From Synergistales bacterium (GTDB lineage: Bacteria > Synergistota > Synergistia > Synergistales > JAFGMB01): DNA of 64,000 bases. The notes beneath the pieces were generated by a model that was not told the DNA's origin, did no database searches, and worked only from the letters and a program-made list of their open reading frames with translations. The stretch spans positions 1,408,001 to 1,472,000 of the forward strand of contig OY762654.1 of assembly GCA_963666205.1 (NCBI GenBank). Reading direction: 5' to 3'. Numbering within the stretch: position 1 is the stretch's first letter; every line of letters begins with the position of its first letter. The position numbers and the translations under genes were made by a program. Shown here piece after piece: positions 57,921 through 62,536 of the stretch.

Positions 57921-58985
57921 CTAGATCACTGGAATGGCGCCGCAGATCTTTTCTCTCTCCTCCTGAACAGGAAGAGCGGGTATAAGACGGGCTATCATAT
58001 CCATGAGCTGCGAGAATTCACTGCAGGACAGAGACTGGTCTCCATCGCACAAAGCTTCTTCAGACCTTGGGTGGACTTCTATGATCAGTCCATCGGCACC
58101 AGCGGCCAGAGAAGCCATGCTCATGGGTGTGACCAGGCTGCGAATACCCGTTCCGTGGCTTGGATCAACTATCACCGGCAAGTGGGACAGGGATTTTACA
58201 AGGGGTACTATATTGAGATCGAGAGTATTCCTTGTCCTGGTCTCAAAGCTCCTGATACCCCGCTCGCAGAGGATAACATTGAAATTGCCTCCACAGAGAA
58301 TGTATTCCGCCGCCTGAAGCCATTCATCTACTGTTGACATGGCTCCCCTTTTAAGGAGTACGGGTTTGTCTACTTTTCCCAGGGCCTTCAGAAGGGGGAA
58401 GTTCTGCATATTACGGGCTCCCACCTGGAAAATATCTATATGAGGTTCCAGCCATTCTATGGCTTCAATGGACATGACTTCCGTCACTATGGGAAGACCG
58501 GTTTCCTCTTTGGCTTCACGGAGAAGGGCGATCCCTTCGCTTCCAAGACCCTGAAAGGAGTAGGGATTTGAACGGGGTTTGAAGGCTCCGCCACGAAGAA
58601 CTGATGCTCCAGCCTTTTTAACGGCCAGGGCGGCATCTCTGATCTGTCGTCTGTTCTCAACCGCACAGGGTCCGGCCATGATGATCCTGTTACCTCCGCC
58701 TATGGTCACACCCGGTGCTATCTTTACGATACTGCTCTTTCCCCCGGTAAGTTCCCTGCTGGCGAGAGGAAAGGGACTATCTGTGGTTATTACTTCCATC
58801 ACGCCCGGGAGTCCCTGCAGTGCCAGTTCCCTTTTCATTGTTCCTTCGACCATTACCAGGCATCCGTCGTAATAGGGGATAAAGCGAGCTTTGCAGCCTT
58901 CTTTTTCAACTTTCTGAAACACATTAGCCACATTGACGTTGGATGTACTGTTCTGCATTCTGATGATCGTTCGCTTATTTCCCAT
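57921..58985 (-). CDS. aroF: DAHP synthase, type I-beta, with N-terminal regulatory domain
   Basis: AGPCAVE, GGAFKPRS, GARNMQN, LKRG, CERG, DPSH, EVH, LCDG; GGAGGT SD. Confidence 0.93.
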   Translation of the reverse strand: MGNKRTIIRMQNSTSNVNVANVFQKVEKEGCKARFIPYYDGCLVMVEGTMKRELALQGLPGVMEVITTDSPFPLASRELTGGKSSIVKIAPGVTIGGGNRIIMAGPCAVENRRQIRDAALAVKKAGASVLRGGAFKPRSNPYSFQGLGSEGIALLREAKEETGLPIVTEVMSIEAIEWLEPHIDIFQVGARNMQNFPLLKALGKVDKPVLLKRGAMSTVDEWLQAAEYILCGGNFNVILCERGIRSFETRTRNTLDLNIVPLVKSLSHLPVIVDPSHGTGIRSLVTPMSMASLAAGADGLIIEVHPRSEEALCDGDQSLSCSEFSQLMDMIARLIPALPVQEEREKICGAIPVI

Positions 58986-59034
58986 TTTTACTTACCTCCC
59001 TGATATCTGTTTAATAAATTTTAATAAAGGATAT

Positions 59035-59072
59035 AAAAAAAGCCGGAACCCGGTGAAAACCGGGTTCCGGCT
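59035..59072 (-). terminator. Attenuator terminator upstream of aroF
   Basis: mRNA AGCCGGAACCCGGU-UUUC-ACCGGGUUCCGGCU followed by a U run; lies between the promoter and aroF. Confidence 0.88.
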
Positions 59073-59103
59073 TAATAATGTCTGATTTTCAGCTTATTGC
59101 TTT

Positions 59104-59259
59104 TTACAGCTGTATGCCAGGTTCATCAAGACAGGCCGATAACCGATTTTCACGTACTGAAAGACCACTGGCATAGGAATAAAGCCACTGGCCGCTGGTA
59201 AAGTAGAAATAATAGTATGCGAAAGAGCTATCGATGGTCTTACCAGGTACGTGCATCAT
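59104..59259 (-). CDS. Aromatic-rich attenuation leader peptide (51 aa)
   Basis: MMHVPGKTIDSSFAYYYFYFTSGQWLYSYASGLSVRENRLSACLDEPGIQL; GAGGAG SD; lies between promoter and terminator. Confidence 0.82.
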   Translation of the reverse strand: MMHVPGKTIDSSFAYYYFYFTSGQWLYSYASGLSVRENRLSACLDEPGIQL

Positions 59260-59321
59260 TATCGAACGTGTCTCCTCTCTTCAAAAAGATTTTGTCTGAC
59301 TTTTCAAATATATTGTCGGCC

Positions 59322-59350
59322 ATGATAAAGCCCTCAGAGCCTTTTGTCAA
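59322..59350 (-). promoter_or_regulatory. Sigma70 promoter of the aro operon
   Basis: TTGACA-17 nt-TATCAT. Confidence 0.8.
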
Positions 59351-59369
59351 GGCTATTATGTAAAAAAGT

Positions 59370-60179
59370 CTAAAAGGTCCTGTCGGTCCATCTGGAAAGG
59401 GCTTTTTTTATTCCGCCCCGGGCACTGTGTTCTATGAGCCATCTGTCAATTACTTTCTTGAAACCATATTCCCCCGGGCCCAGCATGAAGGCAAATCTGG
59501 CGCAGGTAAAGGGCCGGTGGGGATTAATGGCCTTGAGAAGGGGACATCGTTTTTCCCAGACCATGGCCTCAATGGCATCGGTTATCATAATATCGGCCTC
59601 TCCCCTGATTATCATGTCAAAAACGGTCATATTGTCCTTGTGGACTGTAATTGTTGCTCTACTGAGCTTTTTCCTGGCAAAGGCTTCATTGGTCCCTCCC
59701 GGATTGACGATCACTCTCACCCCTGGACGGTCTATGTCTTCCAGGCTGTCAAAGAGGCGGGCCCTCTCTCTGGATGAGATGGGAGCTTTTCCTGTCCTGA
59801 AATAGGTGGCACTGAAAAGGGCTTTCTTTCTACGCTCCTTCGAAATGGCAATGCCTCCCACTGCAATATGAAATTTCTCTGACAGAAGATCATCCATGAG
59901 ATCTCTCCAGGAGGTGGGGATGAACTGAATGCCCACTCCGAGGAAACGGGCAAAGTTCTCTGCCGTATCTATATCTATACCCTCGAGACACTCCCCGTTA
60001 TCGTAACTGAAGGGAAGATAATCTGCAGGAGTGCCCACCCGGAGAATCTGACAATCCCTGATCTCCTCAAGAACGGATATTTTCTCGCGGTTTTCCCGAA
60101 TCTTTACCATCTCTCCATATTTCCAGTGAATAGATGGATAGAAAGGTTCGCTTTTACCTCCTGGTTTTGTCTGGATCAT
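59370..60179 (-). CDS. pheC: Cyclohexadienyl dehydratase (PheC-like) without signal peptide
   Basis: DYLPFSY, GKAP, VNPGGTNE, ITDAIE; hydrophilic N-terminus; GGAGG SD. Confidence 0.75.
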   Translation of the reverse strand: MIQTKPGGKSEPFYPSIHWKYGEMVKIRENREKISVLEEIRDCQILRVGTPADYLPFSYDNGECLEGIDIDTAENFARFLGVGIQFIPTSWRDLMDDLLSEKFHIAVGGIAISKERRKKALFSATYFRTGKAPISSRERARLFDSLEDIDRPGVRVIVNPGGTNEAFARKKLSRATITVHKDNMTVFDMIIRGEADIMITDAIEAMVWEKRCPLLKAINPHRPFTCARFAFMLGPGEYGFKKVIDRWLIEHSARGGIKKALSRWTDRTF

Positions 60180-60208
60180 TCTTATTCCTCCCTCTCTCTA
60201 ACAGCCTT

Positions 60209-60245
60209 AAAATAAAAAAGCCGGGACCCTGAAAAGGGTCCCGGC
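60209..60245 (-). terminator. Attenuator terminator upstream of pheC
   Basis: mRNA GCCGGGACCCU-UUUC-AGGGUCCCGGC followed by UUUUUUAUUUU. Confidence 0.88.
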
Positions 60246-60261
60246 CTGAAAAAGCTTCTGG

Positions 60262-60354
60262 TCAAATAGCATCCAGAGCTCCAGGAGGGGACCCGCAGCT
60301 AAAAAAGAAGCTAAAAAAGGAAGATACATTATTAAATATGTTATGGAGCTTCAC
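60262..60354 (-). CDS. Phe-rich attenuation leader peptide (30 aa)
   Basis: GTG start behind AGGAGGTG; MKLHNIFNNVSSFFSFFFSCGSPPGALDAI. Confidence 0.82.
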   Translation of the reverse strand: MKLHNIFNNVSSFFSFFFSCGSPPGALDAI

Positions 60355-60389
60355 GGGTTTCACCTCCTGATGGAATCTGATTTCAGACG

Positions 60390-61256
60390 CTATTTCACTG
60401 CTATGTCCCTGAGAATAGCCTCACGGGAGATCCTGCCCTCTTCAGCCATCACTTCAAACTTTTCGGGAGAAGAGTTTTTGAAATTCTGCAGTATTTCTAT
60501 CAATCTGTCAAGGAGAACTTCCATATTTTCATGATTTGTAGCCCACATATCAGCTGCAAGCCAGGCCGGACCTGAAGCCACCCTGGATGTATCCCTGAAA
60601 CCCCCTCCTACCATTCTGGGCAGGTTGGGAAAACTTTTTTTCTGTTCATCCGCCAGTAATGCAAGGGATGAAGCAAGTATGGTGGGGATATGGCTCACAC
60701 AGGCAAGGATCCTGTCATGTTCGACGGGATCCAGATAGACCGCATTTGAACCTATGGAGGACACTATTTCCGCAGCCAGTTCCATTGCCCGGGGATCGGT
60801 CAGACCATGGGGAACAATAGCACAGTCAGCCTTCCTGAACAGGTCGGGAGATGCATTTTCGATCCCGCTGTACTCCTTTCCTGCCATTGGATGGAGTCCT
60901 ACATAGGCCCCTCCCCAGATCCTTGACAGGGTTTCCCCTATCTCTTTTTTAGTACTCCCCACATCCATAACGGCAGCGGGGGTCTGGGCAAAAAAAGGTT
61001 TCAACATGAGACTTACCTCCTCCATGTTACGGAGGGGGACTGCCAGGATCAGTAAATCAATGGCGTCTGCAAATTCCGCAGCAGTGTAACAGGGCTCGAA
61101 CACAAAACCCATATCAAGGGCAGTTCTCAGAGCTTCGGGGTTCCGGTTCCATCCAAAAACCTGCTTTGCCGCTCCCGATCCTCCAAGGGACGCCGCAAGG
61201 GAACCTCCTATAAGACCAAGTCCTGCTATTCCAACGTTAAGATCTGATAATGTCAT
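60390..61256 (-). CDS. tyrA: Prephenate dehydrogenase
   Basis: GLGLIGGS, DVGSTK, HPMAGKE.SG, EHD...A.VSHIP, GFRDTSRVA. Confidence 0.93.
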   Translation of the reverse strand: MTLSDLNVGIAGLGLIGGSLAASLGGSGAAKQVFGWNRNPEALRTALDMGFVFEPCYTAAEFADAIDLLILAVPLRNMEEVSLMLKPFFAQTPAAVMDVGSTKKEIGETLSRIWGGAYVGLHPMAGKEYSGIENASPDLFRKADCAIVPHGLTDPRAMELAAEIVSSIGSNAVYLDPVEHDRILACVSHIPTILASSLALLADEQKKSFPNLPRMVGGGFRDTSRVASGPAWLAADMWATNHENMEVLLDRLIEILQNFKNSSPEKFEVMAEEGRISREAILRDIAVK

Positions 61257-61292
61257 ATTTTTCTCATCTTCTTTTCAGGGTAATTGTCGGGA

Positions 61293-61321
61293 ATCATAAA
61301 CTTGAGGGTCTATTGTGTCAA
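61293..61321 (-). promoter_or_regulatory. Sigma70 promoter of tyrA
   Basis: TTGACA-17 nt-TATGAT, about 36 nt before the ATG. Confidence 0.78.
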
Positions 61322-61478
61322 GGCAAACTGGAGCGAGCCTGGAAAAACCTTATGAACTCCGGACAAAACCCTATTCTCTCGCGGAGAGAAGGGAAGGGAA
61401 ATGGGAAACACGGAAGAAATCGAAATGGCTGTCTACTTGGAACTTATTGCGAAAATGGCATTAACCCCAAGTCAACCT

Positions 61479-61521
61479 GAAGATACAGGCCGGACATTAA
61501 TTCTGTCCGGCCTGTATCTTC
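61479..61521. terminator. Hairpin with an 18-bp stem after the dehydrogenase gene
   Basis: GAAGATACAGGCCGGACA...TGTCCGGCCTGTATCTTC. Confidence 0.6.
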
Positions 61522-61552: not shown

Positions 61553-62536
61553 CTATTTTTTCAGAACTTCTGGATTCAGAAGATCTGGCGGCGTCTTTCC
61601 TTCCAGCCCCGCAAGGAGGTTAGTCACTGCCTTGATGGCCATATCCTCTCTGGTCTTTGTACTTGCGCTTCCAAGGTGGGGCGTCATGGCGATGTTATCA
61701 AGCAGCAGAAGGGGGTCTTCGGCATCCATGGGCTCCTTCTCGAAAACATCCAGGCCGGCTCCGGCGATCCACTCCTCCTTCAAGGCTCTGGCAAGGGCTT
61801 TCTGATCAACGACAGGACCCCTGCTGGTATTGATGAGAATGGCTGTTTTCTTCATCATCTTCAGTTCCTTTTCTCCTATGAGACTCCTGGTCTCCGGAGA
61901 GAGGGGACAGTGAATAGATATAAAATCACAGGTTCCCAGGAGATCCTCAAAGGAAAGGAATGATATTCCCAGTTCTTTTTCCAGTTCCGGTCTCCTGTTC
62001 CTTCCTGTATAGCAAAGCTTCATATCAAAACCCTTTGCCCTCTTTGCCATTGCCTGGCCTATCCGGCCAAGGCCTATTATTCCAAGGGAGGATCCTGCCA
62101 CCTGCTGGCCCAGGAGCATTCTGGGACCCCAGTACCTCCAGCCTCCGGATCGCATGAGCCGTTCTCCTTCGCTCATCCTTCTGGCAGCCATAAGAAGAAG
62201 GCCAAAGGCCAGGTCTGCGGTCGCATCTGTGAGCACTCCAGGTGTATTGGTAACAAGGATGCCCTTCTCTGTGGCATAAGCCACATCTATATGATCGTAA
62301 CCCACGCTGTAACTGCTTATGATCCTCAGATTCCTGCCTGCATCAATTGCTTCCCGATCCATTTTTGTTGTCGCTCCAGGAATGGCTACCACTCCATCGG
62401 CAATGGAGATCTGTTCAAGAAAATACTCCCTTACAGGCGGCTCAATGTCTCTCCATATCTCAAAATTAGCCTTTGTCAGAAGCATATCGAGGCCTATATC
62501 GGGGATATTAGTCGCAATAAATACTCTTGGTAACAT
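61553..62536 (-). CDS. gyaR: D-2-hydroxyacid dehydrogenase (glyoxylate reductase / D-glycerate dehydrogenase)
   Basis: VGYDHID, NTPGVL, GLGRIG, INTSRG, LDVFEKEP, TPHLGSA. Confidence 0.88.
   Translation of the reverse strand: MLPRVFIATNIPDIGLDMLLTKANFEIWRDIEPPVREYFLEQISIADGVVAIPGATTKMDREAIDAGRNLRIISSYSVGYDHIDVAYATEKGILVTNTPGVLTDATADLAFGLLLMAARRMSEGERLMRSGGWRYWGPRMLLGQQVAGSSLGIIGLGRIGQAMAKRAKGFDMKLCYTGRNRRPELEKELGISFLSFEDLLGTCDFISIHCPLSPETRSLIGEKELKMMKKTAILINTSRGPVVDQKALARALKEEWIAGAGLDVFEKEPMDAEDPLLLLDNIAMTPHLGSASTKTREDMAIKAVTNLLAGLEGKTPPDLLNPEVLKK

Follow-up and report, generated by a model that had tools for sequence, protein, structure and literature searches.

The window analysed here, a stretch of 64,000 nucleotides from the genome of a Synergistales bacterium (contig OY762654.1, positions 1,408,001 to 1,472,000), carries on its minus strand the shikimate-pathway operon aroF-aroA-aroE-aroC-aroKB-aroQ-CM (CM, chorismate mutase), preceded by a leader that encodes a short peptide rich in Tyr and Phe. 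This leader is conserved, covaries and varies in a translation-like manner, which argues that it is a ribosome-mediated transcription attenuator of the aroF operon reading mainly charged tRNA-Tyr and tRNA-Phe; we assign this interpretation a probability of about 0.8. Although switches of this type are well known, the family is new and its wiring is unusual, the protector strand being drawn from the leader's own ribosome-binding site. As a covarying RNA/peptide regulatory family, it is absent from Rfam 15 and spans the aroF-keeping families of the order, in a phylum (Synergistota) with almost no described gene regulation.

The leader unit occupies, on the minus strand, the 385 nt separating the stop of the upstream gene (59370) from the aroF start (58985). 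A preliminary description made from the letters of the window had proposed a promoter, a Shine-Dalgarno (SD) sequence, a 51-codon open reading frame (ORF), a terminator and an antiterminator in this gap; all five are present on that strand at the positions listed in Table 1. The terminator and its U tract stand as described except that the scan counts 15 pairs in the stem rather than 14. The leader thus possesses several hallmarks of an attenuator: a short ORF with its own SD, enrichment in Tyr and Phe codons, a terminator and a mutually exclusive antiterminator, the two strands of which, GUGAAAAUCGG and CCGGUUUUCAC, are complementary over 11 positions with one G-U pair.

Codons 13-29 of the leader ORF (FAYYYFYFTSGQWLYSY) comprise six Tyr, three Phe and one Trp. 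Among the 69,513 stop-free 17-codon segments in the six frames of the window, which hold 1.76 aromatic residues on average, this is the only one with ten; nine or more are found in ten segments, seven of them overlapping the aroF leader ORF. Promoter and terminator scans of the region by themselves did not rise above shuffled expectation, and the case therefore rests on conservation and covariation.

Conservation of the leader upstream of aroF

The aroF protein was searched in 41 genomes, its own and those of 40 relatives of the same order, and orthologues were found at 27 loci (E <= 3.4e-93). In the remaining genomes the search gave either nothing or only low-scoring hits (27-34% identity, E 1e-15 to 1e-25), taken here for a paralogous synthase. 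At 24 of the 27 loci aroF is preceded by a full leader, in which an SD and a start codon introduce an ORF of 41-80 codons with the same core; at two others (L004, L006) it is interrupted by the contig end with the core still visible. The leader-peptide attenuator put forward in the preliminary description finds support in this conservation and in the covariation set out below, and the alignment of aroF upstream regions from relatives that it had suggested yields both the conserved aromatic-codon ORF and the covarying antiterminator it anticipated.

Spacing and signals are conserved as well. In all 24 leaders a GGAG-type SD precedes the chosen start (reassigned in L017), and the distance from the leader stop codon to the aroF start is 81-140 nt. 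A strict TTGACA-N15-19-TAnnnT promoter lies upstream of 21 of the 27 aroF loci; the match at L026 consists of a doubled TTGACA, and L003, L007 and L021 have TTGACA with a variant -10 element.

In a wider sample of the phylum, the hairpin-core pattern is present in 53 of 268 genomes, and 35 of these have a loop of Tyr/Phe codons as judged by reading the matched strings. Among thirty core-pattern loci examined, 17 are followed after 201-246 nt by aroF in the same orientation, one is a contig-end variant (L045), and the pattern at the other 12 occurs by chance in different surroundings. The motif-poor families f3 and f4 mostly gave only weak matches in the aroF search. Near-invariant P3 arms (the hairpin of the core, see below) extend across 10 families whose aroF proteins are 54-73% identical. 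In its own genome the aroF copy is the sole match without mismatches. Thirteen one-mismatch matches there proved unrelated, three of them being one identical repeat. Among the 80 matches to the exact core pattern listed for GTDB species genomes, one (L088, in a named Synergistota genome) looks genuine and the rest are due to chance; these matches are thus uninformative as to distribution outside the phylum.

Two side observations concern particular loci. At L027 (genome G022), in one family of the order, the long leader has been replaced by a different short one of the YYYYFF type, MQRIDLFAAKYYYYFFRLFLKR followed by a stop codon, which lies with its own terminator some 180-330 nt upstream of aroF, with CRISPR-like repeats farther upstream. 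At L003, L004, L006 and L007 the contigs begin 181-453 nt upstream of aroF, inside or just 5' of the leader, and a separate contig (C253 of genome G003) ends within the hairpin core; these ends may reflect assembly breaks at the element.

Covariation and mutually exclusive helices

Covariation was counted in the alignment of the 24 leaders (23 distinct rows). Six of the 11 antiterminator pairs advanced by the preliminary description are changed on both sides, with 90.1% of cells paired, and the observed covariation score was matched by none of 500 column shuffles. Eight of the 12 terminator pairs counted are changed on both sides (94.9% of cells paired). In hairpin P3, which carries a conserved G-G mismatch in mid-stem and Tyr codons in its loop, 98.1% of cells are paired over nine pairs; four pairs are invariant and two are changed on both sides, from C-G to U-A in three rows and from C-G to G-C in one. 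The G-G mismatch shifts by one position in the four leaders with a UCU serine codon and is otherwise kept. Pairing of P3 and the antiterminator together amounts to 93.7% and falls to 47-51% once their 3' partners are slid by one column.

Folding, also suggested in the preliminary description, returned an anti-antiterminator helix in which strand A, at the start of the ORF, pairs with strand A', which contains GUGAAAAUCGG. The pairing is species-specific: in 15 representatives the cognate A:A' duplexes average -29.85 kcal/mol, compared with -22.24 +/- 1.00 kcal/mol for swapped partners, and none of 20,000 derangements was as low; a column-by-column pair count anchored at the start codon was dropped in favour of this comparison of cognate and swapped partners because the register shifts by one codon between leaders. 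In the leader of the window, A:A' sequesters seven of the 11 antiterminator nucleotides. These analyses show three mutually exclusive pairings, A with A', A' with the terminator arm, and the terminator itself, and through them two leader states, each of which excludes the other.

Near-invariance of P3 and the competition between A:A' and the antiterminator raise the alternative of a riboswitch-like RNA, in which a ligand, a protein or a tRNA would stabilise A:A' and thereby hide the antiterminator, the ORF being secondary. A multi-helix junction whose closing helix competes with an antiterminator is the usual layout of transcriptional OFF riboswitches, the P3 arms and their fixed G-G mismatch are near-invariant over 10 families, and the 286-nt leader has a minimum free energy (MFE) of -91 kcal/mol compared with -63.6 +/- 5.1 kcal/mol for 200 shuffles (z = -5.4). 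The sequence 5' of P3 is not conserved, however, and in-frame loop indels, UAU/UAC wobble, an SD and start in 24/24 leaders and an open frame of 41-80 codons would be unexpected of a non-coding aptamer; the conservation is not frame-blind as that of a metabolite riboswitch would be, indels being multiples of three and third positions wobbling. Nor did an Rfam cmscan of positions 58700-59700 with E values up to 10 return any family at threshold: its 22 weak matches were all driven by the terminator hairpin, and neither the Trp, Phe, His, Thr and Leu leader families nor the T-box was listed. We regard a riboswitch-like element as quite improbable.

Evidence for translation and transcription of the leader

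Three lengths occur for the P3 loop, 8 nt (in eight leaders), 11 nt (in 12 leaders) and 14 nt (in four), so that it differs by whole codons in 24/24. Its Tyr codons interchange between UAU and UAC and also swap with UUU. In the P3 3' arm, UCU replaces the AGU serine codon in 4/24 leaders (L020, L022-L024), Ala-Ser-Gly being retained. From the start codon to the antiterminator the leader frame is open in 23/23 distinct leaders, a figure that follows by construction from defining the ORF in that frame although no leader needed dropping, compared with 6/23 and 4/23 for the other two frames; in 23/23 the leader stop codon lies between the antiterminator strand, 24-63 nt earlier, and the terminator, 20-56 nt farther on. 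That loop lengths differ by whole codons and that no leader lacks an SD and a start codon speaks for the ORF being translated. We also considered whether the Tyr codons of the P3 loop might act in the manner of a T-box and rejected the idea, there being no T-box match and the loop varying by whole codons.

Granted translation, the sensor could in principle be the peptide. In TnaC, the model for such a mechanism, arrest occurs with tryptophan; here a free ligand, be it one of the aromatic amino acids or an intermediate of the pathway, would prompt the conserved motif F-[ST]-x-G-Q-W-x-[YF]-Y-(Y)-A-S to arrest the ribosome, and the arrested ribosome would set the switch. Such a reading would account for the invariance in 24/24 leaders of residues other than Tyr and Phe (Q, W, A and S), for the retention of Ser in four leaders through a change of codon family, AGU to UCU, that shifts the stem mismatch, and for leader lengths of 41-80 codons, which are long for simple codon counters. 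The invariant residues are nonetheless encoded by the P3 stem, so that constraint on the RNA explains them; where the two can be separated it is the pair that wins, Gly being replaced by Asp or Ala at both stem ends with pairing kept. Codon sensing agrees with the Tyr/Phe enrichment and with the parallel leaders that this genome carries (FFSFFF and WWW), and peptide sensing appears improbable.

Short contigs on the leader were found in four metatranscriptome runs from three studies (59092-59277; 59016-59264; 59080-59234; and 59244-59401 plus 58729-58983 in aroF). They attest presence in RNA libraries only, irrespective of ends, strand and level, parts left uncovered being uninformative, and are a weak hint that the leader is transcribed given that DNA carry-over is possible. 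In three of the runs the contigs are restricted to the leader, as might be expected if this complete promoter-ORF-terminator unit were an independent small gene encoding a small protein or a small RNA, with aroF transcribed separately. Yet no promoter-like site was found in the approximately 50 nt between the end of the leader terminator and the aroF start, the unit lies at the same 81-140 nt before aroF at every one of the 24 loci, and the covarying antiterminator would have no role in a free-standing gene. An independent gene is accordingly most improbable in our view.

A proposed model of the switch and a possible role of ribosome queuing

For the ribosome-mediated attenuator, we propose that transcription begins at the TTGACA/TATCAT promoter and that the leader of about 280 nt can take two states. 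In the OFF state A would pair with A', the antiterminator strand would be hidden and the 15-bp terminator would form just before aroF; in the ON state A' would be free, GUGAAAAUCGG would pair with the 5' arm and loop of the terminator, and RNA polymerase would enter aroF. When Tyr and Phe are ample, the ribosome would traverse A' to reach the stop codon between A' and the terminator, after which A:A' would re-form, or A' would be covered, in either case with termination. Should no translation occur, A:A' would form and transcription would likewise terminate. Stalling at the Tyr/Phe codons between A and A' would keep A occupied, and A' could then pair with the terminator arm and allow read-through. 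Since A is out of reach of a single footprint, its most likely occupant would be a second ribosome queued behind the stalled one, which would be positioned exactly on A. As an alternative to the queue, the closing of a helix around the ribosome could be hindered sterically or kinetically.

Ribosome footprints were placed on MFE folds of transcripts ended before the 3' arm of the terminator, the antiterminator being scored as present with at least seven of its 11 pairs. It appeared in 15/23 leaders with one footprint at the best aromatic codon, in 22/23 with two adjoining footprints and in 7/23 with the ribosome placed on the stop codon, in broad agreement with the model. For the leader of the window, the part of strand A covered by two adjoining footprints is 0.79, and in family f8 a single footprint covers 0.53-1.00 of the protector strand.

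Several observations weigh against the attenuator as drawn. The ribosome-free MFE fold already contains the antiterminator in 8/23 leaders. A single footprint at any aromatic codon covers none of strand A (0.00) in the leader of the window and only 0.00-0.34 of it in 14/23 leaders, so that the classical step in which a stalled ribosome masks segment 1 would not take place in these leaders. In a per-codon scan, run in full on six leaders and at the stop codon on all, a footprint at codons 1-2, 4-9, 29 or 31-32 gives the antiterminator and one at codons 13-20, the first aromatic run, does not. While the attenuator parts named in the preliminary description are in place, its trpL/pheL-type mechanism missed the third element, A:A', and the unmasking of the antiterminator by one ribosome at the first aromatic run is not supported by these folds. 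Helix P2 is devoid of covariation support: across the order its cognate energy (-7.39 kcal/mol compared with -7.12 kcal/mol) is reached by 5,523 of the 20,000 derangements and carries no cognate-specific signal. The ten-nucleotide arms of P3, with their fixed G-G mismatch, show much stronger conservation than would be needed for a leader peptide, which leaves room for an extra factor. Lastly, one metagenome-assembled genome (MAG) has a frame-shifting 6-nt P3 loop at L045.

The L045 variant (genome G055; CAGTGGC GTTATC GCCAGTG) is shifted in frame after the Trp codon, and its contig ends before aroF; it could be a sequencing error in this 83%-complete MAG, or a decaying copy.

We suggest, tentatively and as a possibility we hold to be less probable than not, that the switch reads a queue of ribosomes and not a single stalled one, and that the near-invariant hairpin GGCCAGUGGC/GCCAGUGGYC (G-G mismatch, Tyr loop) sets the timing of the decision as an additional element for pausing or recognition. 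The protector strand is the SD, start codon and first 5-10 codons of the leader itself, and only a second ribosome waiting behind the stalled one would keep it covered and so release the antiterminator. The Tyr/Phe run starts about one footprint past the protector, at codon 9-19, in leaders whose protector is the ribosome-binding site; in this genome it starts at codon 13, in the aroF leader as well as in the pheC leader (see below). In leaders with long N-termini, where 29-35 codons precede the aromatic run, the protector strand is relocated beside the Tyr codons: in L020-L024 the best partner of A' is a stretch ending at or entering the first Tyr run and not the ribosome-binding site, a shift that fits such a distance rule. 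If true, a ribosome-binding-site protector that needs a queued ribosome would constitute a distinct attenuation logic; without it, the aroF leader would be an ordinary member of a class published for aroF in two other phyla.

Amino acid specificity and sister leaders

The preliminary description held that one leader integrates the Tyr, Phe and Trp pools. The first two withstand scrutiny: Tyr and Phe are enriched in 24/24 leaders, with 3-7 Tyr and 1-5 Phe codons each. Trp is represented by a single UGG in 22/24 leaders (two in L010 and L025), and that of the aroF leader sits in the near-invariant 5' arm of P3, where its conservation is inseparable from that of the structure and cannot be credited to sensing. 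A separate Trp leader (WWW) precedes trpC-trpB-trpA in the same genome. Sensing of Trp by the aroF leader is therefore doubtful and would be at most a minor input.

The trpCBA leader, a classical Trp leader, encodes MLIITTTRNWWWQAF followed by a stop codon; next come hairpins and a terminator whose closing U run immediately precedes trpC. The leader folds with z = -6.7, and the 13-kb stretch that holds it yielded neither a T-box nor any other Rfam family. A Phe leader (FFSFFF) lies before pheC, in the 210-nt gap between tyrA and pheC on the minus strand of the window. Its 30-codon ORF, MKLHNIFNNVSSFFSFFFSCGSPPGALDAI, is preceded by the SD AGGAGG, begins with GTG at 60354 and stops at 60264-60262; the leader also has a 13-bp terminator (60247-60218) resembling that of the aroF leader. 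Its MFE fold also pairs the SD/start region with a downstream strand (z = -5.1), and by eye this downstream strand looks able to pair with the 5' arm of the terminator. The pheC leader is kept in two relatives, as FFFSFFF in L002 and FFFFF in L005. To judge from these leaders, three aromatic transcription units would be under charged-tRNA sensing: the common pathway by Tyr/Phe, the Phe branch by Phe and the Trp branch by Trp.

Relation to known attenuators

Leader peptides of enterobacterial attenuators have about 14-30 codons, whereas those of the aroF leaders have 41-80. The aroF leader further departs from them in that its ORF runs through the antiterminator strand, its regulatory codons lie in a loop within the protector helix and not in the 5' strand of that helix, this 5' strand is its own ribosome-binding site, and it has no Rfam match at threshold. 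Shared with them are an SD and a short ORF with codons for the end products, a terminator before the first gene, an exclusive antiterminator and an anti-antiterminator that terminates transcription if nothing is translated. General descriptions of the enterobacterial systems (trpL-trpEDCBA, pheL-pheA and hisL) appear in passages of PMC9413887 and PMC11802643.

The two aroF leaders in print from other phyla were compared with the present one by description only. That of Corynebacterium glutamicum is reportedly treated by Neshat et al. 2014, cited in a review for this leader. The leader peptide (aroR) has a Phe-Tyr-Phe motif according to the text excerpted from PMC4046766, and, in the corresponding part of the review (PMC11802643), Phe limitation and not Tyr limitation is stated to have raised expression. 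Both leaders place Phe and Tyr codons before aroF, the gene for 3-deoxy-D-arabino-heptulosonate 7-phosphate synthase, in an attenuation arrangement; unlike the three-codon F-Y-F of aroR, ours has 8-13 aromatic codons in two runs. The uORFC-13-1 motif of Acholeplasma, a uORF (upstream open reading frame) before aroF, was proposed to be an attenuator; it comes with a promoter, contains Phe codons and has a terminator next to it as well as a further base-paired element (excerpted text of PMC8632094), all of which have counterparts here. As described in that excerpt, it is confined to Acholeplasma and environmental sequences and has a U-rich run encoding at least one Phe, with no mention of Tyr.

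The preliminary description knew of no account of such a leader in Synergistota, and no explicit description of the aroF leader family was found in the literature on Synergistetes/Synergistota. That claim is tempered by the aroF leaders already in print for other phyla and by the study of Stav et al. 2019, which analysed one Synergistetes genome, Thermovirga lienii, and whose Fig. 6b legend lists two uORF candidates with notable Phe and Tyr at shikimate genes (excerpts of PMC6429828). The present family may already be among these candidates, which the excerpted text of PMC6429828 lists without mechanistic analysis.

The aroF operon and its neighbourhood

As the preliminary description had it, the leader is followed by aroF-aroA-aroE-aroC-aroKB-aroQ-CM, seven genes with no room for another strong signal: adjacent genes either overlap or stand no more than 19 nt apart, and no strong terminator-like sites were found inside the operon, where only weak 5-pair hairpins occur.

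Table 1. Coordinates of the leader, sister leaders and operon genes (window positions unless stated otherwise).
Feature	Coordinates	Strand	Remarks
Promoter TTGACA-17-TATCAT	59350-59322 (-35 59350-59345; -10 59327-59322)	minus	11/12 consensus positions
SD GAGGAG of the aroF leader ORF	59277-59272	minus	12 nt 5' of the ATG
Strand A (anti-antiterminator 5' strand)	59274-59247	minus	second half of SD, start codon and first four codons; MFE folds
aroF leader ORF	59259-59104	minus	51 codons + stop; translation MMHVPGKTIDSSFAYYYFYFTSGQWLYSYASGLSVRENRLSACLDEPGIQL, then stop
Helix P2	59246-59195 (59246-59239 with 59202-59195)	minus	encloses most of run 1; predicted, own family only
Aromatic run 1, FAYYYFYF	59223-59200	minus	codons 13-20
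Hairpin P3	GGCCAGUGGC 59193-59184; loop 59183-59173; GCCAGUGGUC 59172-59163	minus	11-nt loop with Tyr codons
Aromatic run 2, WLYSY	59187-59173	minus	codons 25-29
Strand A' (anti-antiterminator 3' strand)	59157-59128	minus	includes GUGAAAAUCGG; MFE folds
Antiterminator 5' strand GUGAAAAUCGG	59153-59143	minus	read from sequence
Intrinsic terminator	59073-59033 (stem 59073-59040)	minus	15-bp stem (10 G-C), 4-nt loop, U tract; terminator scan
Antiterminator 3' strand CCGGUUUUCAC	59063-59053	minus	inner 5' arm and loop of the terminator
aroF operon (aroF-aroA-aroE-aroC-aroKB-aroQ-CM)	58985-52267	minus	
aroF	58985-57921	minus	
aroA	57901-56612	minus	
aroE	56615-55767	minus	
aroC	55764-54595	minus	
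aroK-aroB fusion	54698-52992	minus	true start not fixed
aroQ	53023-52565	minus	
Chorismate mutase	52635-52267	minus	
Phe leader (FFSFFF) before pheC	60207-60375	minus	
trpCBA leader	L189 9030-9300; own genome C1 ~1969030-1969300	plus	TTGACA promoter, SD, ATG 9096

A scan assigns the gene adjoining the aroF leader upstream (pheC, 59370-60179, minus strand) to the family-3 solute-binding proteins. Among solved structures, cyclohexadienyl (prephenate/arogenate) dehydratases match it with E values of 1e-59 to 4e-66, and the canonical prephenate dehydratase family, PF00800, was not found in the genome of this organism, which is 100% complete and in one contig. For both reasons, the product of pheC is probably the Phe-branch dehydratase of the organism.

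Next upstream, tyrA (prephenate/arogenate dehydrogenase; 60390-61330, minus strand) has a near-consensus promoter, TTGACA-17-TATGAT, at 61321-61293, without a leader ORF. It is preceded by a gene for a 2-hydroxyacid dehydrogenase resembling glyoxylate/hydroxypyruvate reductases (61553-62536, minus strand), and an 18-bp inverted repeat (61479-61521) lies between the two genes.

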